64,000 nt of DNA from Candidatus Onthoplasma sp. (lineage in GTDB: Bacteria; Bacillota; Clostridia; Christensenellales; UBA1242), in contig CBFGBH010000003.1 in the NCBI GenBank assembly GCA_965646995.1, forward strand, positions 3,533 through 67,532, in the 5' to 3' direction. The notes under the pieces were generated by a model. It saw only the letters and a list, made by a program, of their open reading frames with translations, ran no database searches and was not told where the DNA came from. The position numbers and the translations under genes are program-made. Positions 6,554 to 34,377 of this stretch are shown piece after piece (position 1 is the first letter of the stretch; the number at the start of each line of letters is the position of its first letter).

Positions 6554-6632
6554 TCATATTTCCTGCAATTTTATCTCATTTCATAAAAAAACAAAATTCT
6601 AATAAATATATATTTTATTATTATATTCAATT

Positions 6633-6662
6633 AAAAAAATCATGCGTTTGCATGATTTTTTC
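6633..6662. terminator. Bidirectional intrinsic terminator between convergent genes
   Basis: A-tract, ATCATGC (6639-6645), loop GTTT, GCATGAT (6650-6656), then T-tract. It sits between the stop of the 5570-6553 gene and the stop of the 6819-aa gene (6663). Confidence 0.8.
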
Positions 6663-9600
6663 TTAATCTATCTTAATAATTCCTGGTTTGATGCTACCGG
6701 CCGTTCCTGTACTTCCTGCAAGGTGTTTCAATATATTACCACCACTGAGAGTGACTTGTACACGCTCAACAAAGTAAGTAGGTTTACCATTATTAATAGA
6801 TGTTTTACCAGATTCCGGTAATAAACTATTGCTATCCCAGACACCATCAACATCGGTAAAATCTAAATTTGTAGGATTGCCATTGAAAATATATTTATAA
6901 CGTGAATATAAATCAAAAGTAGAATTTATTAAGTATTTGTTATAATTATAAGATTTAATTTGAGCGGTTTGATTTGAACCATAACTCATAGTCATATAGT
7001 ATAGTAAGCCGTCGCTTTTCTCTGTACCACTATTTTCACCACCGACTACATAAGAAGTGTTGAGTTTATATAGAATTGTTCCATTTTCCTTACCATTTTC
7101 TGTGCGATAATCTGTCTCTAGTTTTGCACCGCTTAAGTAATACCCTTTTAAATCTACATAGTGTTCAGCTATGCTCGTATATTTAAATGCTTTTATAGTA
7201 GTGTTTTCATCTATTGTGACGTCTTCTATTCCTGGAGCGTTAGTAATAGCTGCACCATTTTCATCTGTCAAACGAACATAGTCATTTTTGTTAACTCTGA
7301 TAAATACTTCATCAATATAATTATCTTTATCATTTTCATCAATTAATCTATCCACATAATATCCACCTTCAAATAGGTAATATGTCACATTATGAGGTAC
7401 ACCCGATTCTGAAGAATATATATAATAGTTATTATCTTGGCTATTAGGAATTTCAGACTTATAAGGATTTATAAATGATGTAGGATAAATGATAATCTTG
7501 ATTTTTTCCTTATCGGTGTAACCAACAAACGAAGAATTCTTATTAAATATCATATCTTCAGTATAATCTGCATATGACCACCCGGTAATGACTTCTTCTC
7601 CAATCTTTTCTATCTCAAAATAAACATCTTCATATGTAATTACCGTTTTATCATCTATTACCTGTTTAATCTCTTCCTTTAGCCTTAAATAATTTGAACC
7701 TCGATATTTATCAAAGTCTTCGGGTTTTGAGTCTAGTCTTCTATATGTAGCGTAATTTTTTAGATTTCCATCTTCGAATTTTATACCATTAGCAGTATAA
7801 TATGCTCCGTACATATATTCATAGCCTTCCATGAAATTCTCTTTGTTGTCATTATTAATAGTATTTGAATATGTAAAAGTTCTGAGCTGAACATTCTCTA
7901 CTTTCTTTGCATCTAGTGTGGCATTATTGATAGTATATTTTTCACCTGATTTCTTCACTAGATTGCCTGGGAAGCCGTCAACATTATATTCACCATTAAA
8001 GAAACTACCATATACATATATATTATTATTCCCATCGCTATCTATATCTGAGAAATAATATTTTATACCTTTATACGCATCACCATCTTCATCTTCGGGT
8101 GGTTCAAAGAATGCTGTAGTACGCTGGTATGATACGCTTCCTGAGAGATTATTTATCCAATACATTCCGTCTTTATACAAATAATTGTCATATAGTATAA
8201 AGATGCCATCTAAGCCTGTAAATTGACACAATGTCACATTTACTTCATCTCCATCTGATATCCATTTTACTGAAGCATAGCCTGTAATATCGTTAAGCGA
8301 TTTTGGATATGTTGATGCACCTAGATCTAAATCAATATCCTCTTCTTCTAATGTTACAACTGTAGAAGTTTTATTTTCGGTGAAAGCAATCTTTTTCAGA
8401 CCTTCTTCAGTAAGCTCTACTTTAACGCCAAGATATCTATGAGTGACATAATCTGCTGGTCTATTATATGAGTAGAATGTCATCTCTTGACCATCATCTG
8501 TTGTGAATGAATCATCGAGTTGAGCAATATTATACACTTTATCATTGGTACTATTCTTATTATAGTATATTTCTCTAGAATAGACACTAGACAGATAACC
8601 GAAATTTCTATCTGGTTCTTTAAAATACTGTGACTCACTCGTGCCAGCTGAGTATATTTTAGTAGCGCTATATAGAGCTATACATGTGAATAAAGCTATA
8701 AATTTGTTGGCATTCTTAGCTATGAATTTTCCAGTTGCCTTTGCTGCTTTTGCTAATAGCTTTTTCGCTCCTTGTTTTGCCATTGCTTTTCCTGTCTCTT
8801 TAGCAACACCTTTTGCAAGTTGTTTAGCTCCTTCTTTCATTAATGAAGTGGCAGCAGTACCTGTTCCTGCTGTAGCCACCGCTATAGTAATATCTATAAC
8901 TAAAGCTCCTACAAAAGTACCTACTGCAAACCAATCAATGGCGCCAGCATTTTCTCTCGTAATTTGTGCATTTTTACTAATATATCCAGTGACTTCAAAT
9001 AACAATCCTGACTGTGGTAATTCATGATCTGTAATACCGCCTAGACTACCAGAAACTTTATCATTTCCTGTTTTACCATTATCATAGGTCAATCCATTAG
9101 CCGATTCATTCTCAAATACAGTTTGGAATACAAAGTATGCTCCTTTGCTACTTGAATACTTTGCATCACCTTCATTAGATTCATCTCCAGCCAAGTAACC
9201 TTTTACAAAATACGATATGTAAGTCGAATTATTCTTTTTACCATCTTGATTATTTACGAATGTTCTATGGTTATTTCCATTACTTAAAGTTGCATACTTC
9301 GTCCATTCACCTTTTGATCCCCATTCGAAATAGGTTAACCCATTAAGATTTTTTCCATTATTACTATGATTTGCATCAATATAATAATCTTCTAATGGAC
9401 TCTCGTTAATAAATGCACCCCATAACCATTCACCTACATTTGCTTTACTATCCGTCAGAGTCTCGTATAATGGTGTCTCTTCTTTCAATATATCATTTCC
9501 TTCTGAGTCCTTTTTATAATCATCCTTAGTTACTTGATGATATCTAGGAGTAGCGATACCAATTGGACTGTAAAGTTTCGGACTTCCTGGTTCCTCTTCA

Positions 9601-12600
9601 TAAATAGTAAAACATATATAATCATTCTCACAATCAACAAAATCAGAAGACTCTTCTAATCCATTAGCTGTATTTTTAGATGTGTATTTTTTGCGTTGTA
9701 TACCTTTACCTTGTAATCCAAGGTTTTCTATAGTTCCCACATGAGTAATATTCGCAGCATCGTATATTGTAGCAACAGAATCCCATGTGTTAGCCTGTGG
9801 AATACATCTCTGTACAATTCTAAAACCTGTGTATTTCTTATGCCAACCTTGAGCATATTTATTTAATGGATTTGTTGTAATAGTATTATTGAACTTAGTA
9901 TTAGATGAGGGAGAAATATTAAAATTATCTTGATTTATATAGTATGCTTGTGCATATAAATATACTTTTCCTTCGTCTGTCACTTCTTCATGGAATATGG
10001 ATTCTGCATCGTAATAATTAGAATTTTCAATTGTATTAATAGTAAATGCAAACTTGTGTATACCTTTTACTGTAGCACCCGGAGCACCACTATCATTTGT
10101 TTGACCGGATACTACTTTCAACAAGCCGACTAGACCGCCGAAGTTTTCTGGTTTATTTGAATCAAATACTCCATCATAAACATTTGCTCCAGTCATATTG
10201 CCTTCTAAACGTCCGATTAGACCACCCATATAATAAGAGACAGCATTATTAGAGATAATGATCTCTTTATGCAGTTCAATACCATTCAAATTAACCATAC
10301 CAGTTGTTTTAGCTACTTTACCAAAGAGTCCGCCGACATACATTCCATTACCATTTTCTTGCAAAGTAATTGCCTTACCGAATGATGTCGCACCATCTTT
10401 AATTTTATAATTTGAAATAGCACCATTTAAGTATCCTACTACTCCGCCTATATTGTATGCACCACTAGTAGATGAATCTGCTATTAATTTAGGTGTATTT
10501 AGGGTAGTATTCGTGTCATTTCCTTTTAAATATCCGTAGAATGTACCGACATTGATACCTAACTGAGCGGATACATTGACATGTATCGAATTTGAAGTAA
10601 TGGCATCGCCATTTCTAATCATATTTTCATTAGTCGTGCCTATGAAGCCACCGAAGCCGGAAGATAACGAATTGAATTTCGTCGCCTTCTCGCCATCTGG
10701 GTCAGTGCCTAATAGTTCTTTATAATCATCTACTTTATCTGGTTTGATATTTTCTGAACCTTCTCCTATAGCTATATTAGCCATTAAGTTACCAATAGTA
10801 GAAATGACTGAAGATGTCTGTTTATTAGCACCGCTAGCTATTGTTGCTCCTTCATTCGAACTCGTAACATTGATAGATACGATGTTGTTGTTTTTTAATA
10901 CATAATTAGTCTCGCTAGAGTCAGCAGTACCTATGAAACCGCCGACACTAGTAGGTAGATATACTATTGTTTGTGTATCATTAAAATTATTATTAGTTTT
11001 GATATTTAAACCATAGAATATGCCTTTTATCTCAGTAGTAGCGTTAGCCTTTGTCTCGTTAGCATCATTTGAATATGCTATATGTCCTACTAATGAATTG
11101 TATACAGAAGAATTCCTTAACCTACCTATTAAACCGCCTACACTAGTATTACCATATATATTCGACGATGACAAAATGGAGTCAATGATACTATCTCCAA
11201 CATAACCTATAGCTCCACCAACATTTATCACACCTGAGACTTCTGCACTCGAAGTAAATAATGGATTGTCTAAAGAGTCTAATTTTCTTACTTTATATAA
11301 ATTATCTAAGTCAGAAGGAGACTCTACTCTAATATAGTCATAAGTCTTCTTATCCCCGACTATATTCTCAGTACGAGTGAAGTACAATTCATTATCTGAT
11401 GGTGTTTCATTATTATTAAATGAAGCCTTTTCATAAAGTGACTCATTTATCAAACTAATCTTTTTCGCATAACCGATTAATCCACCCACATTCTGATAAC
11501 CAGTCACAGGCGAAGAATTTCTGATATTGGTAATACTATAATTTGCTTCTTTAGTATTGTCGATTAAACCTATCACACCGCCGACATTAATTGTGTATAA
11601 GGTCGACTTATTCGTCATAGAGTTCAATATATATTTATCGGAATTAAAGCCCAAACCACTATTTTTATAATAAGTGATGAACTTATCTCCCGCTTCATTA
11701 CTTAGATTCTTAGCACTACCTTCTAGACATCCTACTACTCCACCTAGACCGATTAGATTAGGATTGTCTGTGAGCTGAGCATCATATATAATAAATCTAT
11801 TTCTATTAGTAATGACAGGTACTGCTACTGGCTGGTCATTTTCACGTGTAGTTGTAGTATTATCAGTGCCAGTATTTTTCTTATAAGTAAGTTCTCCTAC
11901 AAACTTTCCAAACAGACCGCCCCAATTCGATAACGACTTTGAAGTGATACCATTATTACCAATCGTTGCATAGCCTTCTTTCGACTGCAAGAAATTCCAA
12001 AGTTTATCTATTTGCTCTCCGCTAGTCCCTTCATTTATAGACGCATCTACTGAATATTTCTGCATCATTGTATCAATATTGCCGTTAAAGTATCCAAACG
12101 CACCGCCGACATTGTGTGTGCCATTCAGAATAATCGTATCGCTACCAGACGTCCCTAAATCAGTATGAAGTGTAATATTAGGAACATTGGTTCCTGCATT
12201 ATATCTTCCGACTAAACCTCCTAGATTATAACCATTATCTACAGTGAAATTGTTGATTTTAATAGTACTATTCTTTTCTATGAAACTACCCGCGGTCATC
12301 AATCCTAAATAAGTACCGAAACCTTGTTTGCTTTCATCTGATGTACTTGCTGACGCATCAGCTTTAGATGAGTCTGCATTAGCGTTTGAAACTGTAGCTT
12401 TTATATTAATATTTTCTGCTGAAAAGTTATTTAAGCACAGCGCGCCACCAATCTGTTTAGCGACTGCTAGACCTAAATAATTATATCCAGCATTCATATA
12501 AACGACGATATTTGAGTTTACTCCAGTTACGATAGAGTCAATACCGAAAGAGCATCCCTCAATGCTAGCATTACCACTCTTAATCTCTCCAACGATACCG

Positions 12601-15600
12601 CCGAAAGACTGTGCCTTCAATTTATATTCAGCTACAACCGAGTTATTAGTTACAGGTACTAATACTTTAACATTACTAATTGTTATCGTATTTTTATCCG
12701 ATGAACTAGAATTTTCTGCTACTCTACCTACTACACCTGCCAATATATCTACACCATGATTTGCTTCATATCCAGTTAATATCTTAACTTCTGCATTATT
12801 GCCATTGATACTACCAGCTGACATTTCTCCGACTATGCCACCAGCGTAAGTAAAGGCATCTGCTTTATCTCCAATATCTAAGTACTCGAAAGCAATAGTA
12901 AGAGCCTTATCCCCTACATGACTAGAGTCTATATCAATCTTACCGCCTGATAATTTACCGGCTATGAGACCTGTCACTAGACCTGAAACTTCGGTATCTT
13001 TGATCTTAGTGATAGTAGCACGAGAATTTTTATTAACGGTGGCGTCGTCAGCTCTAGATGTTGCATTAACCTTAGTGATTAGATTATTAATTTCAACATC
13101 TCCAGATTTTATCTCGCCAAATAAGCCACCTACATATTTGCTATTTTCAATTGCTTGAACTTTAGCTTCCGAAAGATTAATTGTATTGACCTTAACTGTC
13201 GCTTCTTTTTGATCATTTTCATCGACAATGGACTTAACAAGTTTGCCTAGTATTCCTCCATCCTTGATATCCATAGTGCCGAACTTGATACATTCGAAAG
13301 TTGCTCTATTGATATTGCCGAATAATCCACTACCTGAAATATTCTCTATAGTACAAGCATTTTCATCATTAATGTCATTTATAGCATAATTTTTATTAGA
13401 AATAACTTTACCATTGAACTCAGCATCAGAGCCTGAATATAGATATTGTCTAGTGCTTGCTGCATCTGTGCCGATTACACCTTGACCGACAGTATAGTCT
13501 GTCCAATCTATGCCTTTTCCGTCTATATCGTATATTATAGCGTAGTTCAAATATGTATTATCTAAAACTATCTCACTATTATCTCCTAATCTCCATGTAT
13601 TCGCCATACCATGTATCATACTGAGTACACCTAAATTAGATATCTTAATATAGTCTGTAACAGAATCTGAGCTCTGTCCTCTACCAGTGTATAATTGGTA
13701 GTTCATTTCATTATCTTTGTGGAAATTATAGACCGGATATCCATAATTGTAACCAAATGAAGTAGCATTCAAATCAATGAAATCATGATATGTAGCGGTA
13801 ATACCTACTATCGTGCTAGACCTACTTCCTATAATAGTATGCCAATTACCTTTTAGTTTAGGGATAGTTATCGAAGTATGCTCTTCTTTATGAGTATTCA
13901 TTAGGTCATAAGTAGATATTGTTTTGATAGCGTTATTATTCTCAATCTCCTCAATATTCGCAAAACTATCAATAAAGTTATTTGAGCCTATAAGAGTGTT
14001 ACCACTAAAGCTTGTATATCTCTCACTAATAACTTCGATAATACCTGCCATATATGTATTATAGACATAAGAATTATCTTCACTCGTTTTTACAATACCG
14101 GTTGCCATAGCGGTGTTATCGTTATTTATATAACCCGTGAAATAGCATGTTAAAATTTTACCGCCATTATAGTTATTCAAAACTATTCCTGAAATATCAT
14201 TATTACATGTTGTAAACTCTGCACCTGAATATGAATAAGATACCAAACCTGTATTAGTATGAGATAATAAACCTATTTCGCCTGATACAGTGAGACCTGT
14301 ACCCTGTACTGAGCAGTTGAATATCACGCCATTATTGTAGGCAGAAATTATACCACCATTATGTGAAATACTATCAGATAATTCCACATGAAGATTGGAT
14401 ACCGCACCATGTCTATTAATCATTGGTACGATAGCCTTTTCGTTCGTCTCTTTTCCTTCGTTATCTATAGCTACATTGTAAGCTATATTGGTCTCATTAG
14501 ACTTATATATCTTCTCATTTGCTATCATCACACCAGATAGACTACCTATAAAATCAAGTGATGAACTACCAGATAATAGATAGAAATCATATACTTTATC
14601 ACTTAGATTATAAGTAGATGTCTCATTTATAATTGCCGGATTTCTAGCCGAACCTACTGGATAAGTAAAGGCTCCTGTTGTGTCATTACGGAATATAGCA
14701 TAATTCTCTAACGCAAGCTCCAAACTTCTTGGATATGGAGCGTATTTTCTATCGCTTGCTCCCTCTTTTGCGCTCCAAATAGAAGTATTTGTAAACTTAC
14801 TCCAATCGTTTGAGAATGCCATAGTGTAGGCTGAGATATTCTTGCCATAACCTGAATCTTCTGGGAAGAGTGCATAGTCACTAGAATAGTATAGACTATC
14901 TTCGCTAATCTGCACTGCCCCCACACTACCGAATAGTGCATTGACATGTAAGTTTTGAATCGTATCTGCACCTAATCCGTCTGCAATAATACTAACCATA
15001 TCATATACATACATGATATTAACATTTGGTGCTTGACCTATTAATCCACCGACATAGATTTTAGTGATATCTTCATTATATATAGCACTAATCGGTATTA
15101 TCTTACCATCTACAGATGAATTTTTTATATTGAGTGTAATATTGGTAGAATTTTGAGTCTCGTCAGTCGAATCGTTAACAGTATTAAGTGCATTAACAAC
15201 TTGACCTACTAGTCCACCTGAATAAATTTTATTAGTAGCATTAGAGCCTATATTAATATTACCTGTAGCCATGACTTCATTTTGGTCAATCACTATATTG
15301 TCTTGAGCGGTTGCTGATAAGCACAAACCTAATACATATGAAGCCCATATGTTATTAATAGTAGCTGTACCCTCTGTATTGATATTTCCTGTGAATAAAC
15401 ACTGTGCTATATCTAGGTAACCATGTGATAGAGCCACACCGAATGCTGTCATGAGATTATCAATATATCCTGCTCTAGTCATATCAATATTACAATATAC
15501 ATTTGACTGAGTGATATTGATATTCGATGTTCCACTTACTGTAGAATTTGCGACTAATCCTGCCACACTAGTGAACGGAGTAACTGTCTGATCTCCCTTA

Positions 15601-18600: not shown

Positions 18601-21600
18601 GTAGTATTCTCGCCGATATGTTTACCATTGAAAGTACATGCTGCATAGCTTTCTTTAATTGTACCTGAAGCATGATTATATACAAAACCTGCCATGAAGG
18701 TAGAGTCTGACCTTATTTCTGTATTGGCATAAGAATTGTCTATATCTCCACTATTAGTATGTACAAAGCCTGCTACCGTACCATTAGTAGTTGATTCGAT
18801 TTTAGCTCCTGTAGAATATGGATTTTCGCTAGTAATATTTCTCTCGAGCGCTTTCACATAACTATATGAAATTTTACCTGAGTTATCAGCTGCGAAACCT
18901 GCTGTCTTGCTAACGCCCGGTGCAGTAGAATAGTTGATTAAGCTGGTATTAGCTACATAAGCACTGGCTATAACAGCCTCGTTCTGACCTACAAATGCTC
19001 CTGCCTCCGCTATGAAGCCCTGTCCTGTAGTAGCGCCTGTCATATTGCCTATAACAAAACTGATTGGCTGCGGTCTAAGTATAGTCTTATCACTATTATC
19101 CATAGTAATGTAACCATAATCATTGACTGAATCCTGTGTCTCGCTTGCTGTTATACGTTTATATGACAAGTTGCCCACGCGTGAATTAGTGATAATTGCA
19201 TCTCCAGTATTCTTACCTACCAAGCCACCAAATACAATATTCACTTCGTTCGAACTATCCGGTAGTAGATTTACAATTTTTTCACTAGGAGCAAACGCCA
19301 TAACATCACTGTTATAAATTAAGCCACTATTATTATGTGCCACCAATCCACCGAAAGTGATGTTCGTAATATTATTATTAGTAAGTATTAATCCTTCGAA
19401 TTGACCATAGTCTACAATGACATTCTTCAGAATGGTCTGTTTCTCTTCGCCCTCTTCTGTCGTATATTTTCCGATAGTATCAAACAATCCATAATTGGTT
19501 CTATCGACATCAACTGCGAAACTCTTTATAGTAATTACTCTATTATTACCGTCTAGACTGGATATGTTGGTAGTAATAGGAGTGAAATTTTCCAGCACTA
19601 TGTCATTAGCTAGAATATAATCTTCGTTCGCATTCATGGCAAGGAAATCTTCCGCTGTCTTAATCTGAGTAGCATGCTCCTCAGTCGTACTTGGATAGAT
19701 ATTTAGTCTAAACGAGAAATCCATGGTATATGGATATTGGTTATCTGAAGCTGACGCAAATTTCAACTCATACTTTCCATCTTCCCCTATTTCATAATTG
19801 TAATGAACATCAAAGTTAATATCTAGTTGAATTGCTCGCGTAGCGTCGATTCTAAGTTTATTATTAATAAATCTAACTATAAACTCTTCTTGAGAGTCCG
19901 CTAGAGTCTTTCTCGTGCCGTTAGCGTCAATATAGTAGAATAATTCTAAAAACTTATTCAAATTATTTTCATTTATTTTGACATGATCTTCACTATCAGT
20001 AATTTCGCCCATTATACTTCTCAACAATATATAATATAACTCATCTGATAAATCGGCGTTGGCATCAGTATCAAATATAAACTCTAAATACCTAGAATGT
20101 CCCTCCGCAATACTAAATAAGCCATTGTCTAGACCTTTGATAGTAGCGGAATTGTTCTTTACTACATAATCTACTGGATGGAATACCAAAGTGTTACTAT
20201 CTTCACTCGTAATCTGACCATCTTCTGTAATAAGTGTCATATTTGCACTCATCGTAAATGTCTTAGGGATATTCTTCGCTACATTGAGATATACATCAAT
20301 ATAGTATGAACCATCTGCATTAGATACTATATCTCCGAGATGATAAGATACATAGTCTAATATCTTTGCAGTCTCTTCTTTATCATTCCATACAAAGTTA
20401 ATGATTGGCTTCGCACTAAATTGATAGCCGTATACCTTTAATTTAACTACATTACCTGTAGTACCTTTTTGCACTATATACTCTCTAGTATCGTCACTTA
20501 GGTCTCCTACCTCAATTCCATCATAAGTCAAACCAGCTCCCGGTATATATTGAGTAAGAAGTGGTTTAGTAATAGACTTCACTATACCATTGTTGGTCTC
20601 TACATCTAGAGATATCGTGATTGAGCCCTCTAGACCACTGAATTTCTCTAAAATAGTGTGGACATAGATGACTCCTGTGTATTCATATCCGTTCTCACCT
20701 TTGACAGATGCCTTCTCTAGCATTATACCGCCATCTATCTCTTGGTTCCTTGGATATATAGTTTCATAGTTATTATTCTTTTCGTTATAAACTACTTGCT
20801 CAAAACGAATGCGAACGTTCTTATTCAAATCTGGAACGAATAGCTCGCTACTCGTCAAGGCCGCAGAAACAAGATTAGAGTAACTATGCTCTAAGTAAAT
20901 CATCAATACTCCACCATATCCACCAGGAGAGATAATTGCCGTCTCTGTAGAATTGGCACTGATGATATTTATATAAGAACCAGCAGCCGACATACTAGTC
21001 GCTGTGTAATTATCCATACGAATAGTAGATAATGGTGTTGGCTTTAATTGAACATTAAAAGTGGCATATTTGTCATTATTGCTCTTTGCACTTACGCGAA
21101 CAATCAAATCAATATTATTCTCAATGAAACGATAATTGTGTTCATCTTTTAGAGACATATTGATATTGTAATTATAGCCTAGATTATTTTTTAATAGAGT
21201 GTATCCGAATGAGAAATCAAATAACTCTACTATATTCGATACTTTAGCTCGACTGAGTAGTTTATTTAATTCGGTTTCACTTTCTTCTCTACATGTTATT
21301 GATAGCTCAATACTATCTTTGCCATCTTCTAATAAAACGACTTTATCCCCAACTATGCTGTATTTTACGAATGGTTTATTCGCTGTGTCAGTCGACATAT
21401 AACCTGTGTATAATTCAGCATCGAATGTGATATTTGCATTGGTAGGAACGGATGGCTCACTACCCACAACCACTACTTCATTAGCCGATTTCATAGCCAC
21501 TACTCTAAGAGTAGTCTGTGCAATGTCTATTATATCACTACTACCTTGGTAATTATCTCCAAAATATTCTTTTGCATTTAGCTCCAAAACTGCAGTGATA

Positions 21601-24600
21601 GTTTCGACTTCTCTATTGTCAGTAAATATAGCATTGTCTTTCACTTTTAGAGTAAACTCTGTCTTTGAGTTGGTTGTATCTTTTATATCTAATATACTAT
21701 TAGTAGCCGTCTCTAATCTAATTGACAGATATTCATCAATATTGGCGTCTAATATAGTATTGAAACTTATACCATCATAAACATTATTCGCACCGATATT
21801 GAATGTAATAGGATTTGCCCCTGTGAATGTCATAAGTTCAAATATCGCATCTTCATCATTTATTCTATTGACATTTGAGGATTCTATGATAAGTTCACTC
21901 ACACCATATTCAGTATATAATACTATAAATTCTTCAAGGTCTTCATTAAATGATGAATAACATCTTATCACTATACGATTATTACCGAGTGTAACACCTG
22001 TGAATACTAGTTTTTTGACGCCATTGACATCTGTAATATAAGCATATTGCGAGCCTTCTATTACCATGAAATTCACTCCGCCCTGTGCATCGGTAGGTAC
22101 TACTCTCAAACTTATTATATCAAGTAAATTATAAGTATTGTGAGATATATTGTTGAGCGGATTCGCTGGGTCATTGTGATAATTGATAATTACAGTATCT
22201 GTAATCTTGCTCTCATTCACAATAATATCCATGTCGCCAACTATAATTGAATTAATCTTATTGATATATTCACTATTGACACCTACTGTGATGCTAGTAG
22301 GCTTCTTTATCATGAGAATATCATTATCATATATTAGATATGGTAAACTATATTCTTGACTATTAAATAGTATAGCATTGTAATTTGAACTATTGCTCCA
22401 ATTACTATTAAGTATCAAACCACTAATAAAGTCATTAATTTTATTTGCATTTTCTTCATCTGGAGTAATATTTTCTATCGTATTACTACTCATTGCATAT
22501 ATTTTTTCATCATTATAGAATATTGCGTAAGTAGCGTTAGAAGAAATATCTGCTTCTAAATTATTGAGTCTGCCTACATAGTAAGTGTCTTCTTCTGTAA
22601 CTTTAGAAGTAAGTATTACCCTGCCATTAGTCTGGATATTAGCATTGACGAAAGATAAACTTATCTCTGTACTGCTTGCATTTGCAACTAAACCTGCTGT
22701 AGTGTTGCCACCATTTAATGTGTAGAAAGTAACTATGTTATTCTTTTCATCTCTGGTTTTTGAGATAAATGACTCTACTGTAGCACGAGTAATAGTGACT
22801 CCGCTAGCCTTGGCTACAATACCTGCTACTAAATCTGAGCCTGTGATTCTACCCAAAGCAGTAATACTGCCAGAGAACTCAGCTGAAATATATCTGACAT
22901 CTATAATGTTTGCCGAACTAGCTAGTGCGACTATACCAGCTACATTGAAATCACGATTTGAAGTCAGGTCAAGACCGATTGCATAGCATGTCTCAACATT
23001 ACCTTCTAAAAAGCCTACAATTCCTGCCAGATTTGATTTCTCGCTTGATGATAAATTGCATTTATTCTTTAATTCTAATCTACCGCCAACTAGTATATTA
23101 GAAACCTTACTGCGAGCAGCACTTTTACCAATAACTGCGGCGAGATTAATATTGCCATTTGGAGTATTGGTATTGATATAATTAAACGTAGTATTAGCTA
23201 TGATTGTATATGATGGGCTGTTTAGTCCATCTTTTCCACTAAAACCACCTACGACCTCATTATAGTTTATACCTACTACTAGACCGATATTATGATAAGT
23301 AGTAGAACTAGAAGTAATGTCTGAATTGAAATTAATATTAGATAATGATAAATCTAACTTACCATTATTGATACCTACTACACCACCAAAATTAATAGTA
23401 CATTCGGTGTTTGCCTGCTGGAATAAAATATTGCTACTATTTAGAATAGATACATTTACGCCTACAATCGTACCATTATTAACACCAGCTACCGCACCAA
23501 TATTTAGATTATTATTAGATGTCAACTTGAATGCGCTGGTATCAAATTTAATATCTAAATCAAGACCTCTAATTTCTGCACCTTCGCCTAAAATAGCAAA
23601 TAAGCCAGAATAAACATCTCCATTACCATCCGTAATTGTAGAATTAATATTTAGAGTTAGCTTGTATTTTGAAGTAGAGATAACTTGGTTGTTGCTATCT
23701 AAATTCTCTGCTGTACCATGCAGCTTACCAGTAAATGCTTGTACTGTATTGTCATTCTTCAAACCGATTGGTCTGAAATTATCTATAGCAATATCACTCC
23801 TTAACTGATAATTAGCGCCTAGATTATTGACTATGTTATATAAGTCATCTTCATTATTAATAATATATTTATTCTTCTCACTACCATCACTGATTGATAA
23901 TATTAGCGAGAAAGTCGTAGCATAAGTATGTTTATCATCATTATACGAATCTTTGGCAACAAGTACTAATCTAAATAATCCCCCACCATCATTTTTGTCT
24001 GCTCTAATAATTACTTCGTTATTCGCAAAACTGATATCCAAACGACTCTTATCAATATCTGTCTCTATAGCCACGCCATCGTTCGTCAGAATTGAGCCGT
24101 CTTCATCTTGTAAAATTTGATACAATTCGTAATCTAGTTCATCATAATGTTTATTCGCATTGTTACTAGCATAATATGGATTAGCATTGAATTTGACTAC
24201 GTCATATCTATCAGAATCTGGCACATCTATAAATGACATATAGATATAATGACTATCATCTCCATAAGAAGTAATAGCGTCACCCGAAACTCTAATGCTA
24301 TCCATTGACTCATAGTCAACTACATTGATTGAAATACTATTAGAATACACTGATACTTCGCCGAAACGCAAAGCAATAAATGTCAGTGTAATATTTCTAA
24401 ATGTATGAACATTATAGTTCAAGCGAACTATTATGCTACCACGTAATAGATTGACATCATCTACATTTAGAACACCATTGCCAAATTCATCTAATGGTAT
24501 CTCTCTGTCTTCAGTCTTTAAATACACTGAAACTGCATTTGTATCATTTGTCTCAGATAATTTTAGCTGAATTTGAGTAGCGTTTTTATATTCTGCCTGC

Positions 24601-27122
24601 TCTACGCCTGTGAAAACTACTTCACTAGTAGGCGTAGCATTATTTGATGCAAAAGCAGAGAAATTAATCTCTGTGCTAGCCGCATCTAAATATTTAGAAT
24701 TAATATACACGACATCGCGAGAGTCAGTATTTAGGTCTATATTAGTAATAGGATCGTATACAGCTATCTCTATAGTTACTACTTTCTCAGACTCTACCAC
24801 AGTGTTGCCTACAAAAGTATAGAAAGTAATCCTAAGATTGAGAACTTGCGTAACAGAGCCCTTAATACCCATAATATTGAAAATATTTTTAGATATTTTT
24901 GTCGCTCTTACAGCATATAAATCAAAACCATTACTATTGTGACCAGTATCGGTAATAATAGTTATATCTTTAATCACTAAATCACTAAGCGTATCATTTA
25001 ATTTGCCTAGGACTTCAAAATCAATTGATTTACCCTTGACTACCGCATATTTTAATGTAAATTTATCTACATCAAACTTAGTAACATCTCTATTATCAGT
25101 CTTTACTACTATGCTGTCGCCTGTCGTCACATATACACTTGATAGGCGCACTTTGGCATCCGGTATTCTAACCGCTCCGTCTGCTACGATAAAATCAATA
25201 TTAGCTATCGTCTCGATACCATTAGCTCGAACACCGATAGAATAAATATCATATCTACTAGCACCATCTATATCTGATTTAATAAGATTGACTGATGGGT
25301 CATTTAAGGAAATAATATTGCTATTATTCGCAAATTTTACTTCTTCATTATCACTAGACAATTTTATACTCGACCTATTAAGTGTACCAGTGTAAAATAC
25401 TTTGGCGAGGATATTAGTTTGAGACTCTGCATTAATATAAATAATTTTGTTATTCTGGATTTCGCCATCTTCTCTATCGAATATTTCTATTTTGTCAGCA
25501 GTCACACTGCTAATAATATTGTATTTAAGTGTAAAATATCTTTGGTCAACTGGGTCAAGAGTGCTAGGTGTAGTCAAAACTCGGAACTGTATCTGCTGAT
25601 TAGTTTTAATACCTTCCTTAAGTCTAATAACAATCTTTTCTCCGCTCTTTACTTTGTATGTATTGCCCGATATATTTTCAACATTTGAAGAAAATATAAT
25701 ATTCTCGTTGGCATCAATAAATATTTCATAATCGCTAACAGCATCATCTGGGTCTACTCCCAATTCTAACTCTAGACCTTTATAATTACCGACACTGGTA
25801 CTATATATTGTGCCGGATGTTTCATTGTTATTGCCTGTGAAAGTCTCATTATTGATAGTGATTCCTTCTGCGAGCATTCTCCTACCTATAACTATCTCGG
25901 TAGAATGATTAGGCATGCTAGATGAAGAGAAATATAGCCCTTCTATCTCTAACGCGAATCGCACCTTATTCTCTGTTTGGGAGAATTTAGTAGTCAGGAT
26001 TTCAAAATCCATACCACCATTAGTGGCATCTTTTGGAGTAATTAATAATCCATTCAATGGCTCTTGTCTAGAGAAATCATATTTTTCATCATCTACATAC
26101 ACTGCCATGCCATACTTTACTATGCCTTTGTGAGTATATAAGCCTCGATTGTACGCACTGGAATATGAATTGGTATCCACATTTAATGTTTCTCTAGCAT
26201 ATTTGCTATTATTTGTTTCATTGGTATACAAATCGAATGTGTCTACTATAACATCGTTTATTTTGATAGTAGGTTTGTATATGCTACCTTCAGCTCCAGT
26301 CTTTATGGCTCTATCTACAATATACACATCAAAGAAAGTGGCAATTTCATCATCTTCTTCATTGTGGTATTTCGATGTAGCCTTGATGCTGACTACATAA
26401 TTACTAGTGTTCAGGTTGGTAAAGTTTGATTTGACTGAAAGTATACCGCCATTAGAGATGGACACATACTGATTAATCTTCTCGGGATCTAAAATATTAG
26501 GCATGTATCTACCATCTAGAGTGTAATAGCCTAATGAATCTATCGAGTAGTCTACACCTTTCTCTAAAGTACCTTGAGGGAGATACTCTAGATTATTTAA
26601 TGTGAGGAGTGCAAGATTACCGCCAACCATTACTGCTGGACATTTATCCAAGTTGGCATGTATCTCGGTCAATGCCTTTGATACATTCAAACGCACATCC
26701 GTACTATTACGAGAATTGGTTTCATAAATTCCTAGCACTGTCTGTATAGTGCTATTCTCATAGATATTAATTGGGAATATTTGATTTTGTTTCACAGTGA
26801 TAGAATTAAAGCCAAACGAGCTCTGTGAACTCGAGACAATAATGTCGTCGATATATTTTGCCTTAACATTCTCTATCGAAATTCTAAAGTATAATTTAGC
26901 AACTCCTGATTCAAAGACTAATCTATCTTCAGTCTCCGACTCCTTATTAGAATGAAAAATTGAGATGCCATCTGTACCATCGTACCAGTTGGTAGCATTT
27001 TCACTATACGCATATTCGATTTTAAATTTCATATTATCATATCTATCTTTACATGCCGAGAACACTCCACATGTAATTGATAAGAATACAATCATTAAAA
27101 TACTTAAAATACTTTTCTTCAT
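6663..27122 (-). CDS. Giant surface lipoprotein (6819 aa). Beta-sandwich-like N-terminal ~1050 aa, then at least 6 reiterated entry-module plus GLUG-repeat blocks, an internal TM hairpin and a ~660-aa C-terminal domain.
   Basis: Single uninterrupted ORF in the track. N-terminus MKKSILSILMIVFLSITCGVFSAC has a signal peptide plus lipobox-like FSAC. GAGGGA lies just upstream of the ATG. There are dozens of GGLVG/GGLIG/AGIVA/GGIVG/AGLVA motifs at about 25-30-aa spacing, followed by N.G.I..SY-like turns (GLUG motif pattern). Module starts include DDLYNIVNNLGANYQLRSDIAIDNFRPIG...FTGKLHG, AEDFLAMNANEDYILANDIVLENFTPI...LDGNNRVITI, and FNPYIIRNVAEYNDVL...LINNIDFDD...LDGNGMTISG. Confidence 0.9.
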   Translation of the reverse strand: MKKSILSILMIVFLSITCGVFSACKDRYDNMKFKIEYAYSENATNWYDGTDGISIFHSNKESETEDRLVFESGVAKLYFRISIENVKAKYIDDIIVSSSQSSFGFNSITVKQNQIFPINIYENSTIQTVLGIYETNSRNSTDVRLNVSKALTEIHANLDKCPAVMVGGNLALLTLNNLEYLPQGTLEKGVDYSIDSLGYYTLDGRYMPNILDPEKINQYVSISNGGILSVKSNFTNLNTSNYVVSIKATSKYHNEEDDEIATFFDVYIVDRAIKTGAEGSIYKPTIKINDVIVDTFDLYTNETNNSKYARETLNVDTNSYSSAYNRGLYTHKGIVKYGMAVYVDDEKYDFSRQEPLNGLLITPKDATNGGMDFEILTTKFSQTENKVRFALEIEGLYFSSSSMPNHSTEIVIGRRMLAEGITINNETFTGNNNETSGTIYSTSVGNYKGLELELGVDPDDAVSDYEIFIDANENIIFSSNVENISGNTYKVKSGEKIVIRLKEGIKTNQQIQFRVLTTPSTLDPVDQRYFTLKYNIISSVTADKIEIFDREDGEIQNNKIIYINAESQTNILAKVFYTGTLNRSSIKLSSDNEEVKFANNSNIISLNDPSVNLIKSDIDGASRYDIYSIGVRANGIETIANIDFIVADGAVRIPDAKVRLSSVYVTTGDSIVVKTDNRDVTKFDVDKFTLKYAVVKGKSIDFEVLGKLNDTLSDLVIKDITIITDTGHNSNGFDLYAVRATKISKNIFNIMGIKGSVTQVLNLRITFYTFVGNTVVESEKVVTIEIAVYDPITNIDLNTDSRDVVYINSKYLDAASTEINFSAFASNNATPTSEVVFTGVEQAEYKNATQIQLKLSETNDTNAVSVYLKTEDREIPLDEFGNGVLNVDDVNLLRGSIIVRLNYNVHTFRNITLTFIALRFGEVSVYSNSISINVVDYESMDSIRVSGDAITSYGDDSHYIYMSFIDVPDSDRYDVVKFNANPYYASNNANKHYDELDYELYQILQDEDGSILTNDGVAIETDIDKSRLDISFANNEVIIRADKNDGGGLFRLVLVAKDSYNDDKHTYATTFSLILSISDGSEKNKYIINNEDDLYNIVNNLGANYQLRSDIAIDNFRPIGLKNDNTVQAFTGKLHGTAENLDSNNQVISTSKYKLTLNINSTITDGNGDVYSGLFAILGEGAEIRGLDLDIKFDTSAFKLTSNNNLNIGAVAGVNNGTIVGVNVSILNSSNILFQQANTECTINFGGVVGINNGKLDLSLSNINFNSDITSSSTTYHNIGLVVGINYNEVVGGFSGKDGLNSPSYTIIANTTFNYINTNTPNGNINLAAVIGKSAARSKVSNILVGGRLELKNKCNLSSSEKSNLAGIVGFLEGNVETCYAIGLDLTSNRDFNVAGIVALASSANIIDVRYISAEFSGSITALGRITGSDLVAGIVAKASGVTITRATVESFISKTRDEKNNIVTFYTLNGGNTTAGLVANASSTEISLSFVNANIQTNGRVILTSKVTEEDTYYVGRLNNLEADISSNATYAIFYNDEKIYAMSSNTIENITPDEENANKINDFISGLILNSNWSNSSNYNAILFNSQEYSLPYLIYDNDILMIKKPTSITVGVNSEYINKINSIIVGDMDIIVNESKITDTVIINYHNDPANPLNNISHNTYNLLDIISLRVVPTDAQGGVNFMVIEGSQYAYITDVNGVKKLVFTGVTLGNNRIVIRCYSSFNEDLEEFIVLYTEYGVSELIIESSNVNRINDEDAIFELMTFTGANPITFNIGANNVYDGISFNTILDANIDEYLSIRLETATNSILDIKDTTNSKTEFTLKVKDNAIFTDNREVETITAVLELNAKEYFGDNYQGSSDIIDIAQTTLRVVAMKSANEVVVVGSEPSVPTNANITFDAELYTGYMSTDTANKPFVKYSIVGDKVVLLEDGKDSIELSITCREESETELNKLLSRAKVSNIVELFDFSFGYTLLKNNLGYNYNINMSLKDEHNYRFIENNIDLIVRVSAKSNNDKYATFNVQLKPTPLSTIRMDNYTATSMSAAGSYINIISANSTETAIISPGGYGGVLMIYLEHSYSNLVSAALTSSELFVPDLNKNVRIRFEQVVYNEKNNNYETIYPRNQEIDGGIMLEKASVKGENGYEYTGVIYVHTILEKFSGLEGSITISLDVETNNGIVKSITKPLLTQYIPGAGLTYDGIEVGDLSDDTREYIVQKGTTGNVVKLKVYGYQFSAKPIINFVWNDKEETAKILDYVSYHLGDIVSNADGSYYIDVYLNVAKNIPKTFTMSANMTLITEDGQITSEDSNTLVFHPVDYVVKNNSATIKGLDNGLFSIAEGHSRYLEFIFDTDANADLSDELYYILLRSIMGEITDSEDHVKINENNLNKFLELFYYIDANGTRKTLADSQEEFIVRFINNKLRIDATRAIQLDINFDVHYNYEIGEDGKYELKFASASDNQYPYTMDFSFRLNIYPSTTEEHATQIKTAEDFLAMNANEDYILANDIVLENFTPITTNISSLDGNNRVITIKSFAVDVDRTNYGLFDTIGKYTTEEGEEKQTILKNVIVDYGQFEGLILTNNNITNITFGGLVAHNNSGLIYNSDVMAFAPSEKIVNLLPDSSNEVNIVFGGLVGKNTGDAIITNSRVGNLSYKRITASETQDSVNDYGYITMDNSDKTILRPQPISFVIGNMTGATTGQGFIAEAGAFVGQNEAVIASAYVANTSLINYSTAPGVSKTAGFAADNSGKISYSYVKALERNITSENPYSTGAKIESTTNGTVAGFVHTNSGDIDNSYANTEIRSDSTFMAGFVYNHASGTIKESYAACTFNGKHIGENTTAEQPFVGYENNELLSHGRLINTYFLIDQNVIIDKSKIPYPDNQDQADALNWENFSNADKLNNFVFVLSDSRQERSQGIWSYYNSDDRLTILPELTSTNKVTYSYRYFTGFNDEGLNNFANSAHFSQGSEFNPYIIRNVAEYNDVLTHNSSISSISGYFRLINNIDFDDNNKAITTRVGFTFGDKSNRNVTSLDGNGMTISGIFLDVGQDVEESIGLFSEIEYAYIKNLNLEFADAKFSSANVQYSGGLSGKINNSVIMNVNLNGANTVINGNNFAGGLAGIITGKGLIYSVTSNVNALANTENTSNMYYRSNDYVMKNGWNYDEYLKHLSYAGGIAGVIDLDVRGRDEYNLSYITIDGNGMMTPVEGDGNIKADFAGSIAGYAGLNTKSLKLKYNVGVNNRIRGWHAVGGLFGVNMGSITASQVTAIEETQFNYDKAYGEYVIKLSKGEESVLEGDYGNRTLLESYQYAGGLVGIGINNTIKSCYSKASFKSGVTIGGLIGISIASTVNYSYAVPFIHLDANTRRVGGLFGQTFDTIDRDGQASEYISILNNMVIHNTSHSLNSLFSTVLLDDASFESNSDFVIDYICADFGQGTTGTSLNGLMSYIYSGEVNYTDVNTVRNQLENKISHAQLSELLNRTDDVAISKQEVLFKEIFSSWDEEFWSFDDSKFYPLLLSKKADNYTLIENSSDFDKLISNPSGAFKIVNDINLFDWIETHNDSNFIFNIDFTGILIGGKEDGTTPTISGLHKRTITTGNAGLFRTTNRATIRNINFEWQAESKNPAITVNHEIAYVGGVSASDTNSLFASLNVIVATDNSAQDGNQNAFLRTNGNNSIAGFGGIVGFATNSNVQGCIFAGQIDAQLKGIGYTNNIVNFGGLVGYSMRQDDDNALVQNSMAIIDSQVGVDEYPQEFKLTLAGNTTDFNIGGAVGNATNGTIISKVKVGNYAYEKNPNATINVNMNSVKKDIYLAGVVGSATNTILTGIDARTNIVLTGSNDDNKGDQTVTPFTSVAGLVANSTVSGTSNINITQSNVYCNIDMTRAGYIDNLMTAFGVALSHGYLDIAQCLFTGNINTEGTATINNIWASYVLGLCLSATAQDNIVIDQNEVMATGNINIGSNATNKIYSGGLVGQVVNALNTVNDSTDETQNSTNITLNIKNSSVDGKIIPISAIYNEDITKIYVGGLIGQAPNVNIMYVYDMVSIIADGLGADTIQNLHVNALFGSVGAVQISEDSLYYSSDYALFPEDSGYGKNISAYTMAFSNDWSKFTNTSIWSAKEGASDRKYAPYPRSLELALENYAIFRNDTTGAFTYPVGSARNPAIINETSTYNLSDKVYDFYLLSGSSSLDFIGSLSGVMIANEKIYKSNETNIAYNVAIDNEGKETNEKAIVPMINRHGAVSNLHVELSDSISHNGGIISAYNNGVIFNCSVQGTGLTVSGEIGLLSHTNTGLVSYSYSGAEFTTCNNDISGIVLNNYNGGKILTCYFTGYINNDNTAMATGIVKTSEDNSYVYNTYMAGIIEVISERYTSFSGNTLIGSNNFIDSFANIEEIENNNAIKTISTYDLMNTHKEEHTSITIPKLKGNWHTIIGSRSSTIVGITATYHDFIDLNATSFGYNYGYPVYNFHKDNEMNYQLYTGRGQSSDSVTDYIKISNLGVLSMIHGMANTWRLGDNSEIVLDNTYLNYAIIYDIDGKGIDWTDYTVGQGVIGTDAASTRQYLYSGSDAEFNGKVISNKNYAINDINDENACTIENISGSGLFGNINRATFECIKFGTMDIKDGGILGKLVKSIVDENDQKEATVKVNTINLSEAKVQAIENSKYVGGLFGEIKSGDVEINNLITKVNATSRADDATVNKNSRATITKIKDTEVSGLVTGLIAGKLSGGKIDIDSSHVGDKALTIAFEYLDIGDKADAFTYAGGIVGEMSAGSINGNNAEVKILTGYEANHGVDILAGVVGRVAENSSSSDKNTITISNVKVLVPVTNNSVVAEYKLKAQSFGGIVGEIKSGNASIEGCSFGIDSIVTGVNSNIVVYMNAGYNYLGLAVAKQIGGALCLNNFSAENINIKATVSNANADSSKADASASTSDESKQGFGTYLGLMTAGSFIEKNSTIKINNFTVDNGYNLGGLVGRYNAGTNVPNITLHTDLGTSGSDTIILNGTHNVGGAFGYFNGNIDTMMQKYSVDASINEGTSGEQIDKLWNFLQSKEGYATIGNNGITSKSLSNWGGLFGKFVGELTYKKNTGTDNTTTTRENDQPVAVPVITNRNRFIIYDAQLTDNPNLIGLGGVVGCLEGSAKNLSNEAGDKFITYYKNSGLGFNSDKYILNSMTNKSTLYTINVGGVIGLIDNTKEANYSITNIRNSSPVTGYQNVGGLIGYAKKISLINESLYEKASFNNNETPSDNELYFTRTENIVGDKKTYDYIRVESPSDLDNLYKVRKLDSLDNPLFTSSAEVSGVINVGGAIGYVGDSIIDSILSSSNIYGNTSVGGLIGRLRNSSVYNSLVGHIAYSNDANETKANATTEIKGIFYGLNIKTNNNFNDTQTIVYLPTSVGGFIGTADSSETNYVLKNNNIVSINVTSSNEGATIASGANKQTSSVISTIGNLMANIAIGEGSENIKPDKVDDYKELLGTDPDGEKATKFNSLSSGFGGFIGTTNENMIRNGDAITSNSIHVNVSAQLGINVGTFYGYLKGNDTNTTLNTPKLIADSSTSGAYNIGGVVGYLNGAISNYKIKDGATSFGKAITLQENGNGMYVGGLFGKVAKTTGMVNLNGIELHKEIIISNNAVSYYMGGLIGRLEGNMTGANVYDGVFDSNKPENFGGLVGLLKVVSGQTNDSGAPGATVKGIHKFAFTINTIENSNYYDAESIFHEEVTDEGKVYLYAQAYYINQDNFNISPSSNTKFNNTITTNPLNKYAQGWHKKYTGFRIVQRCIPQANTWDSVATIYDAANITHVGTIENLGLQGKGIQRKKYTSKNTANGLEESSDFVDCENDYICFTIYEEEPGSPKLYSPIGIATPRYHQVTKDDYKKDSEGNDILKEETPLYETLTDSKANVGEWLWGAFINESPLEDYYIDANHSNNGKNLNGLTYFEWGSKGEWTKYATLSNGNNHRTFVNNQDGKKNNSTYISYFVKGYLAGDESNEGDAKYSSSKGAYFVFQTVFENESANGLTYDNGKTGNDKVSGSLGGITDHELPQSGLLFEVTGYISKNAQITRENAGAIDWFAVGTFVGALVIDITIAVATAGTGTAATSLMKEGAKQLAKGVAKETGKAMAKQGAKKLLAKAAKATGKFIAKNANKFIALFTCIALYSATKIYSAGTSESQYFKEPDRNFGYLSSVYSREIYYNKNSTNDKVYNIAQLDDSFTTDDGQEMTFYSYNRPADYVTHRYLGVKVELTEEGLKKIAFTENKTSTVVTLEEEDIDLDLGASTYPKSLNDITGYASVKWISDGDEVNVTLCQFTGLDGIFILYDNYLYKDGMYWINNLSGSVSYQRTTAFFEPPEDEDGDAYKGIKYYFSDIDSDGNNNIYVYGSFFNGEYNVDGFPGNLVKKSGEKYTINNATLDAKKVENVQLRTFTYSNTINNDNKENFMEGYEYMYGAYYTANGIKFEDGNLKNYATYRRLDSKPEDFDKYRGSNYLRLKEEIKQVIDDKTVITYEDVYFEIEKIGEEVITGWSYADYTEDMIFNKNSSFVGYTDKEKIKIIIYPTSFINPYKSEIPNSQDNNYYIYSSESGVPHNVTYYLFEGGYYVDRLIDENDKDNYIDEVFIRVNKNDYVRLTDENGAAITNAPGIEDVTIDENTTIKAFKYTSIAEHYVDLKGYYLSGAKLETDYRTENGKENGTILYKLNTSYVVGGENSGTEKSDGLLYYMTMSYGSNQTAQIKSYNYNKYLINSTFDLYSRYKYIFNGNPTNLDFTDVDGVWDSNSLLPESGKTSINNGKPTYFVERVQVTLSGGNILKHLAGSTGTAGSIKPGIIKID
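8650..8935 (-). other. Internal transmembrane hairpin with Ala/Lys-rich loop inside the 6819-aa protein (about aa 6064-6158)
   Basis: The translation reads WFAVGTFVGALVIDITIAVATAGTG, then TAATSLMKEGAKQLAKGVAKETGKAMAKQGAKKLLAKAAKATGKFIAKNANK, then FIALFTCIALYSATKIY. That is two hydrophobic spans flanking a ~50-aa strongly basic AK-repeat loop. Confidence 0.65.
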
Positions 27123-27207
27123 ATTCCCTCACTTTAATTTGCTCTAATTATTCGATTTTTATTAACATAAAATTAATAAATTTCGCGCGAGTATAATTAT
27201 TAATTTT

Positions 27208-27236
27208 ATTATATAAAATAATAGTCATAGAGTCAA
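27208..27236 (-). promoter_or_regulatory. Consensus sigma-70-type promoter for the 6819-aa gene
   Basis: On the minus strand: TTGACT (27236-27231), 17 nt, TATAAT (27213-27208). It lies about 86 nt upstream of ATG 27122. Confidence 0.6.
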
Positions 27237-34367: not shown

Positions 34368-34377
34368 TTTCTCTCCT

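Follow-up and report, generated by a model that had tools for sequence, protein, structure and literature searches.

The minus strand of a 64,000-nt stretch of DNA from Candidatus Onthoplasma sp. (assembly GCA_965646995.1, contig CBFGBH010000003.1, positions 3,533 to 67,532; the whole stretch is called the window below) contains one giant open reading frame (ORF), 6663..27122, which runs from an ATG start through 6,819 codons and 20,460 nt to a sole stop at its end. It is a genuine, conserved gene and no assembly artefact, and its product, with an estimated mass of roughly 0.75 MDa, is probably a modular lipoprotein of the GLUG type in the cell envelope of an uncultured gut bacterium of the Christensenellales (Clostridia). 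Judged from its sequence, the giant protein appears to found a rare, previously undescribed family that is restricted to the Christensenellales and has an unusual two-point anchoring design; as a giant bacterial surface protein, it still falls into a well-known class. The original prediction for this DNA had described a single uninterrupted frame of 20.5 kb and 6819 amino acids (aa) that uses a third of the window, and both statements hold: the ORF check confirmed the frame, full-length orthologues are collinear with it, and its measured share of the window is 32%. That a protein of this size must dominate the surface, as the prediction also held, is an assumption.

From the N-terminus to the C-terminus, the gene encodes the following elements, where module A to module E denote repeated GLUG units, each opened by an "entry" segment, and TM denotes a transmembrane segment:

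27051..27122, minus: signal peptide (aa 1-23) and lipobox VFSAC with Cys24, the strongest hydrophobic segment of the protein
23874..27050, minus: N-terminal region aa 25-1083, family not recognisable (no match in Pfam, NCBIfam or PDB)
22563..23873, minus: GLUG module A, entry aa 1084-1191 (E = 4e-15) and turns to about aa 1520, motifs at aa 1246-1476
19671..22562, minus: spacer aa 1521-2484, family not recognisable and no GLUG motifs (Pfam, motif and hhalign scans)
18210..19670, minus: GLUG module B, entry aa 2485-2554 (E = 8e-13) and turns
16557..18209, minus: GLUG module C, entry aa 2972-3073 (E = 3e-24) and turns
14823..16556, minus: GLUG module D, entry aa 3523-3618 (E = 8e-21) and turns
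13560..14822, minus: degenerate repeat region aa 4101-4521, in which the entry model detects no entry module
10056..13559, minus: GLUG module E, weak entry aa 4522-4614 and the longest run of turns, to about aa 5690 (motifs at aa 4622-5662)
9498..10055, minus: conserved membrane-proximal domain aa 5690-5875 (about 40% mean identity, nine relatives)
8937..9497, minus: variable linker aa 5876-6062, with LPQSG at aa 6035 and a conserved SGS.FEV.G at its end
8643..8936, minus: putative transmembrane hairpin aa 6063-6160 (TM1 about 6063-6090, a 50-aa Lys/Ala-rich loop, second segment about 6141-6160)
6666..8642, minus: C-terminal domain aa 6161-6819, with YGYLSS.Y.R.I.Y after TM2 and TYFVESV.V.LSG towards the end

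Integrity of the gene and rarity of its family

The GC content of the giant gene (0.33-0.36) is that of the flanking housekeeping genes, in a genome of 34% GC. No direct or tandem DNA repeats of note occur within the ORF, and the internal repeats of the protein are ancient (phmmer of tiles against the protein itself gives E values of only 1e-2 to 1e-5), so that neither repeat collapse nor chimerism is a concern. Two orthologues are full-length, P0013 with 6,834 aa and P0014 with 7,045 aa; each aligns collinearly with the entire giant protein, from its first residue to its last, and is 33% identical to it.

Relatives are few. An exhaustive phmmer search with aa 5700-6819 against 1.84 billion representative proteins (E <= 1e-3) retrieved only 23 proteins, including the window protein itself (NCBI) and both full-length relatives. 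Among the GTDB species representatives, eight loci carry a homologue; these belong to uncultured Christensenellaceae, two Candidatus Onthoplasma sp. and metagenome-assembled genomes (MAGs) of gut Clostridiales/Clostridia, the last of these obtained from human (Hadza), rabbit and other samples. Their frames are collinear with the giant protein and at least 1,043-4,518 aa long, these lengths being lower bounds given that the frames run past the ends of the fetched DNA; identity is 27-45% in seven of them and 24% in locus L011. In one ENA scaffold (L001), the homologue is likewise collinear, falls within the same 27-45% identity range and is interrupted by N gaps only. A metagenome collection added three further loci, and a metagenome scan with the N-terminus of the giant protein found no relatives. 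Most of the database relatives are fragments on contigs of 1-2.5 kb because short-read assembly breaks such genes. On ENA contig ctg429 of ERZ1645045 (L003, 1-11734), a homologous giant gene is located upstream of rpoB/rpoC and is chopped into many small ORFs; the frameshifts look like sequencing noise rather than decay because rpoB and rpoC are broken, too.

GLUG-type modules

GLUG-like motifs of the form [AG]G[ILVFMA]x[GA] occur 43 times in the giant protein, all within aa 1246-5662, while 500 shuffles yield 2.2 +/- 1.5 and at most 7. The orthologues P0013 and P0014 contain 43 and 38 such motifs, respectively. Spacing between the motifs is irregular and varies from 27 to 97 aa. The runs of motifs are preceded by entry modules, for which a hidden Markov model (HMM) was seeded from the modules of the window together with canonical GLUG proteins and then iterated. 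It detects five entry modules, which begin at aa 1084, 2485, 2972, 3523 and, weakly, 4522, and the same five are found at orthologous positions in both P0013 and P0014; the weak entry of module E scores E = 3e-4 in the giant protein, 7e-6 in P0013 and 2.5e-6 in P0014. Outside the giant gene, the model finds one entry module in the 2,963-aa product of a neighbouring gene and one in the protein fragment encoded at 1-5329. It had originally been proposed that the unit is reiterated at least six times: the repetition of the entry modules is real, but the HMM supports five of them and does not detect a unit near aa 4160. In the degenerate region that separates modules D and E, aa 4241-4342 weakly match aa 2778-2845 and aa 3066-3113.

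The assignment to GLUG is carried by profile comparison. When the profile of module C and its orthologues was aligned by hhalign with an alignment of P0007, P0008 and P0009, three bona fide GLUG proteins that all carry the Pfam domain PF07581, the probability was 98.7% (E = 1.7e-16) over 302 columns, and the alignment opens at the NPY.I entry segment and continues through successive GGL.G turns. In addition, phmmer with module C retrieves PF07581-bearing proteins, and homologues of this module in Clostridia MAGs are 42-45% identical. Modules B-C are among the best-conserved stretches of the giant protein. Taken by homology and not by the curated Pfam cut-off, the modules can be regarded as highly diverged GLUG domains. 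They presumably form beta-solenoids, a view that draws on the repeat pattern; almost nothing specific on GLUG was found in the literature, and sequence searches of the PDB with a canonical GLUG profile, the profile of module C and each half of the protein yielded no matching chain.

Proposed anchoring at both ends

The N-terminus, MKKSILSILMIVFLSITCGVFSAC, has the features of a lipoprotein signal, i.e., MKK with two Lys residues, an uncharged hydrophobic core of 18-20 residues and the lipobox ending in Cys24. Cys24 is unchanged in the giant protein, P0013 and P0014, as is the [GK]D[RK]Y next to it, the lipoboxes of the two orthologues being FASAC and FAGAC. The Phe at position -3 is compatible with the relaxed lipobox pattern of Gram-positive bacteria. 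Three other ORFs of the window carry lipobox-like signals. In the whole protein, a 19-residue Kyte-Doolittle window reveals only two strongly hydrophobic segments, namely aa 5-23 and aa 6065-6083.

Between the signal and module A and between modules A and B, the chain has no recognisable family: aa 25-1083 and aa 1521-2484 gave nothing in Pfam, NCBIfam and PDB sequence searches, Pfam did not match partial orthologues or N-terminal segments of P0013, and tiling of aa 1-2500 with hhalign revealed no internal repeats and no support for an Ig-like periodicity. The beta-sandwich-like character originally suggested for about 1050 aa of this part is conjectural. The first 600 aa are 32-38% identical to the full-length orthologues, and aa 25-1083 bear a weak likeness to the central part of the 2,963-aa neighbour. 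Within the giant protein, aa 479-557 (nt ~25452-25688) and aa 6379-6456 (nt ~7755-7988) are weakly similar in both directions of comparison (E ~ 4e-3 to 8e-3), a hint that the N-terminal region and the C-terminal domain may have one type of domain in common.

Near the other end, no stretch of the C-terminal half is better conserved than aa 5690-5875, which roughly equal modules B-C in this respect and carry the motifs FTINTIEN.NY, AQAYYINQD, GW.K.YTGF..QRCIP, WDS..YDA.NI.HVGT and Y.C.TIYE..PG..LYS.IG; the two cysteines of this domain vary among the relatives. It is followed, after the variable linker, by the hydrophobic hairpin. In the three full-length proteins, the loop of the hairpin contains 13-16 K/R and 0-2 D/E, and its flanks are neutral or acidic. 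The position of the second hydrophobic segment is kept in every relative. Loci L006, L008 and L011 are devoid of the basic loop and have TM1, a short turn and TM2. The C-terminal domain beyond the hairpin is rich in Tyr, Asn and Gly, resembling the ectodomain, and is 25-42% identical in eight relatives. Neither this domain nor aa 5690-5875 gave a match in Pfam or in PDB sequence and profile searches. A mobile-element origin was considered and rejected, as the C-terminal 1,140 aa had no match in phage and plasmid collections. The simplest reading of aa 6063-6160 is a helical hairpin with the basic loop in the cytoplasm, which would place the final 660 aa outside.

It should be noted that the protein ends in GSIKPGIIKID, without an LPxTG sorting signal. 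Only LPQSG at aa 6035-6039 (nt ~9006-9020), 27 residues before TM1 and 785 from the end, comes close to one. Together with the hydrophobic segment and the Lys-rich stretch that follow, it resembles a sorting signal, but it lies within the chain, Ser replaces the Thr, and its conservation is poor (the LP.SG form is present in only about half of the relatives, while the adjoining SGS.FEV.G is conserved), and a sortase substrate was therefore rejected. Pfam and NCBIfam detect no S-layer homology or choline-binding (CW_binding) domains in the giant protein, the 2,963-aa ORF or the 1-5329 fragment. On anchoring, the original prediction had reported a lipoprotein-type signal, no terminal LPxTG in this ORF and the 2924-aa one, and no S-layer homology or choline-binding motifs in any of the three large ORFs, and it was right on these counts; its view of purely lipid- or transmembrane-based anchoring had missed the hairpin at aa 6063-6160, the conserved domain at aa 5690-5875 and the 660-aa domain behind them.

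Proposed architecture and alternative explanations

Taken together, these features would fit the following arrangement. The giant protein would be exported by Sec through its lipoprotein signal peptide and would receive a diacylglyceryl modification at Cys24 by Lgt/LspA. About 6,000 residues would then lie outside the membrane, with two family-less regions alternating with five divergent GLUG-type modules, each of which would consist of an entry segment of the type NPY.I...DIDL...F.G.LDGNG..I..L and irregular GG-hydrophobic-x-G turns as a presumed beta-solenoid. The conserved membrane-proximal domain would lead into the hairpin, in which TM1, the Lys-rich cytoplasmic loop and TM2 would bring the chain back to the outside, so that the 660-aa C-terminal domain would be external. 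Tethered at both ends, the protein could form a long surface fibre or loop. By analogy with GLUG proteins that are proposed as gut adhesins and with other giant surface proteins, it would most likely serve to adhere to surfaces of the host, the diet or other microbes, or to form a surface coat.

A further-reaching interpretation is possible, although we regard it as doubtful. The giant protein and its approximately 25 relatives might represent an undescribed, lineage-restricted envelope system with a megadalton protein pinned at both ends, in which aa 5690-5875 and a lipoprotein encoded by the convergent downstream gene would serve in assembly, processing or release of the fibre, like the juxtamembrane modules of eukaryotic mucins and adhesion receptors, and the three family-less domains would lie outside known folds. 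If true, such a protein would be a new envelope system of gut Christensenellales.

Several results weigh against the proposed arrangement. PF07581 has no match on the whole giant protein and none in the partial orthologues tested (P0015 and P0018), and on 750-aa tiles, the check proposed together with the original GLUG call, it fails the curated threshold, with 19.3 (in module B at about aa 2632-2649), 15.5, 15.1, 8.0 and 7.8 bits, all below the gathering score of 20.5; the GLUG call itself is upheld by the hhalign probability and the excess of motifs, but not by the Pfam threshold. AlphaFold2 models have a mean predicted local distance difference test score (pLDDT) of 32 for aa 5290-6062 (five sequences) and of 28 for aa 5700-6819 (three-sequence alignment), and the models therefore support no fold, be it the solenoid, the hairpin or the family-less domains. 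Neither an Lgt gene nor an LspA gene is present within the window. Roughly 3,000 aa, about half of the giant protein, have no match in the Pfam and PDB sequence searches that were run, and an enzymatic or other activity could hide in this family-less half. Lastly, the second hydrophobic segment of the giant protein is short and moderate, scoring below 1.5 in the 19-residue window.

The last point bears on a single-pass topology, in which only aa ~6063-6090 would span the membrane, and the Lys-rich segment and the 660-aa domain would be cytoplasmic, for example joining the fibre to an intracellular partner. This is rather unlikely, but it is the alternative that survives best. The second segment, FIALFTCIALYSA, comprises only ~13 residues and falls below the hydropathy cut-off, and a Lys-rich stretch after TM1 fits the positive-inside rule in either model. 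However, every relative has a second hydrophobic segment at the same place, it scores 1.67-1.77 in P0013 and P0014, the short turn between TM1 and TM2 in L006, L008 and L011 is typical of a hairpin, the residues beyond the second segment are not basic, and the C-terminal domain shares its richness in Tyr, Asn and Gly with the ectodomain.

It is somewhat less likely again that the giant protein is an enzyme carrier, i.e., a surface-tethered polysaccharide lyase, glycosidase or protease with a catalytic domain in one of the family-less regions, similar to M26 IgA1 proteases, in which a metalloprotease is joined to an N-terminal region that bears GLUG. Such proteases are anchored by LPxTG or at their N-terminus, unlike the giant protein. 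The entry segment indeed bears a weak likeness to the N-terminal region of M26 IgA1 metallopeptidases (Peptidase_M26_N, PF05342), with sub-threshold matches in module D (aa ~3534-3616, 21.7 bits) and in the 1-5329 fragment (19.7 bits) against a threshold of 27.7 bits; moreover, the family-less regions are extensive and the membrane-proximal domain is unusually conserved. On the other hand, HExxH is absent from the giant protein, P0013 and P0014, and neither Peptidase_M26_C nor any other catalytic domain was matched in Pfam or NCBIfam, so that an M26 protease was rejected as its identity. In addition, profiles of the conserved domain and of the C-terminal domain had no PDB sequence match, and the cysteine pair of the former varies among the relatives.

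Two further proposals are much less probable. The first is that the protein is a component of the spore surface or of the intermembrane-space envelope under the control of a SpoIIID-like regulator, as a gene of the SpoIIID family (PF12116, E = 1e-24) is located 419 bp upstream on the opposite strand. We consider this highly improbable: adjacency in the window is its sole basis, the intergenic region (27123-27541, 419 bp, 18% GC) contains no GGACAA-type SpoIIID box, and the only promoter candidate seen is sigma-70-like and not of the sigma-E/K type. The second, which is slightly less probable still, is delivery of a C-terminal effector by a contact-dependent or polymorphic toxin system of the Rhs, LXG or CdiA type; it would agree with the very large size, the filamentous repeat body and the distinct C-terminal domain, but it is largely refuted, as that domain is conserved and collinear, including TYFVESV.V.LSG, rather than polymorphic, Rhs, LXG and toxin families in Pfam gave no matches, and the downstream gene is not a co-oriented immunity gene but a convergent conserved lipoprotein gene.

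The weakest alternative, an assembly chimera or a decaying pseudogene forming one frame by chance, could appeal to the frequent mis-assembly of repeat-rich giant genes, to the fragmentary database relatives and to the frameshifts on the long-read contig L003, but it is for practical purposes refuted by 20,460 nt without a stop in a genome of 34% GC, by the absence of DNA repeats from the ORF, by collinear orthologues of nearly equal length in two independent assemblies and by the occurrence of the L003 frameshifts in rpoB and rpoC as well.

Comparison with known surface proteins

The closest likeness of the giant protein, taken here as a doubly anchored GLUG-type lipoprotein, is to the canonical GLUG proteins, among them cargo proteins of the type IX secretion system (T9SS) of Bacteroidota (P0008 and P0009) and membrane proteins of Methanimicrococcus blatticola, with which it shares the entry segment NPY.I...DIDL...F.G.F[DN]GN...I..L and the GG-hydrophobic-x-G turns. 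An adhesin role has been proposed for the GLUG proteins of M. blatticola, an archaeon of the gut (PMC9723798). Both sides of the comparison also share a presumed surface location and an origin from gut organisms. In contrast, canonical GLUG proteins are 500-900 aa long, have regular turns of ~27 aa and pass the Pfam threshold, whereas the giant protein has irregular turns of 27-97 aa that remain below it, combines five modules in a chain of 6,819 aa with large unrelated regions, and has a lipobox and a transmembrane hairpin in place of the T9SS tail.

Clustered genes for giant surface proteins are also present in another host-associated member of the Bacillota: Giant1-5 of Apilactobacillus kunkeei are extracellular proteins of 3,000-8,000 aa with beta-solenoid-type domains that are encoded by neighbouring genes and are thought to be attached via C-terminal SH3b-like domains (PMC12863079). 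In the window, three large surface-protein genes fill about 35 of 64 kb. A sequence relationship of Giant1-5 to the giant protein was not found, and Giant1-5 have no transmembrane domain, unlike the giant protein with its lipobox and hairpin.

Ebh is held not by sortase but by a membrane-spanning segment at its C-terminus. According to two reports, Ebh/Embp of staphylococci and an Ig-repeat adhesin of 7,651 aa from Mobiluncus are likewise fibrous adhesive surface proteins of megadalton scale in Gram-positive bacteria (PMC9302970, PMC10619420). They consist of many near-identical helical or Ig repeats, whereas recent repeats are not detectable in the giant protein, which has GLUG modules instead, and they differ from its predicted combination of a lipid anchor at the N-terminus and a hairpin that has further ectodomain behind it. 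Proteins of more than 5,000 aa number in the tens of thousands across life, according to one survey (PMC11573180).

The giant protein does not open a long-standing question, being another giant adhesin-like protein, but its anchoring design is unusual. The Christensenellales are heritable, health-associated gut bacteria, mostly uncultured, and their cell surface has scarcely been described. In this genome, approximately a third of the 64-kb stretch is devoted to one gene and more than half to three surface-protein genes, an investment that suggests that interactions at the surface are under strong selection. Databases all but fail to show the family because short-read MAGs fragment the genes and Pfam models miss them, which shows that giant surface proteins are under-counted. 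The putative combination of a lipid anchor, a transmembrane hairpin and an external C-terminal domain, along with three domains of considerable size that have no known relatives, offers targets for structure prediction and for studies of adhesion and localisation.

Candidate expression signals and genomic neighbourhood

Three candidate expression signals flank the giant gene:

27208..27236, minus: sigma-70-like promoter candidate TTGACT-17-TATAAT, 86 nt upstream of the ATG, 11/12 matches
27126..27130, minus: Shine-Dalgarno-like GAGGG just 5' of the ATG (27120-27122), as read from the sequence
6631..6662, minus: intrinsic-terminator-like hairpin AAAAAATCATGC-AAAC-GCATGATTTTTT, 13 bp followed by a U-run, directly 3' of the TAA stop

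A consensus promoter at 27208-27236 had been claimed for the gene. The site is present, but it is weak and merely suggestive evidence, because such sites are no more common in the surrounding region of 18-30% GC than in shuffled sequence (10 observed versus 11.7). The claimed terminator abutting the stop fared better: the hairpin, with its U-run, folds with -23 kcal/mol (z = -3.8), and none of 200 shuffles equals it. A terminator pattern scanner gave no call at this hairpin.

The neighbourhood is that of an ordinary Bacillota chromosome, with genes for SufBD/SufC, CysRS, ABC exporters, an M1 peptidase, DnaB_2/DnaI, a dUTPase and two class-IIb aminoacyl-tRNA synthetases; scanning the window for Rfam families and tRNAs gave no hits. 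The following genes of the window are of interest here:

1-5329, minus: third large GLUG protein (N-terminal 1,776 aa), with a membrane anchor at its N-terminus that has no lipobox, entry module at aa 78-164
5570..6553, plus: convergent gene downstream of the giant gene for a predicted lipoprotein of 327 aa (LMFGC followed by a Pro/Gly-rich linker)
27542-27841, plus: SpoIIID-family regulator gene, divergent from the giant gene
28051-28491, minus: ORF of 146 aa, no family match
28601-31382, minus: two tandem class-IIb aminoacyl-tRNA synthetases of 461 and 453 aa (tRNA-synt_2 and OB anticodon domain), presumably AsnRS and AspRS
33672-47595, minus: apparent operon headed by the gene for a 2,963/2,924-aa lipoprotein, with Big_2 near the N-terminus and one C-terminal GLUG module
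38064-38696: archaeal/SipW-type signal peptidase I (TIGR02228), downstream of the 2,963/2,924-aa gene in the same apparent operon

The convergent lipoprotein had no match in Pfam/NCBIfam or in an exact-sequence look-up. Its gene is conserved in place, as the giant gene of L001, L006 and L008 has the same convergent gene (327-340 aa) behind it, and the lipoprotein is a possible partner of the giant protein. The protein encoded at 1-5329 has an orthologue of 52% identity downstream of the giant gene in L004, and in more distant relatives a membrane-anchored GLUG protein of ~1,080 aa occupies the same position. Besides the signal peptidase, the apparent operon of the 2,963/2,924-aa gene has four more ORFs downstream, one of 814 aa and three of 213-241 aa, all without a family match, and its layout is reminiscent of SipW-dependent fibre operons.

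Two minor observations concern other parts of the window. A strong terminator-like hairpin, called on both strands, is located after the 146-aa ORF at 27964-28001. The CysRS gene (47783-49174) has an identical counterpart on a 4-kb contig of Logan SRR35209588 (L012), which indicates that the same organism was sampled elsewhere.

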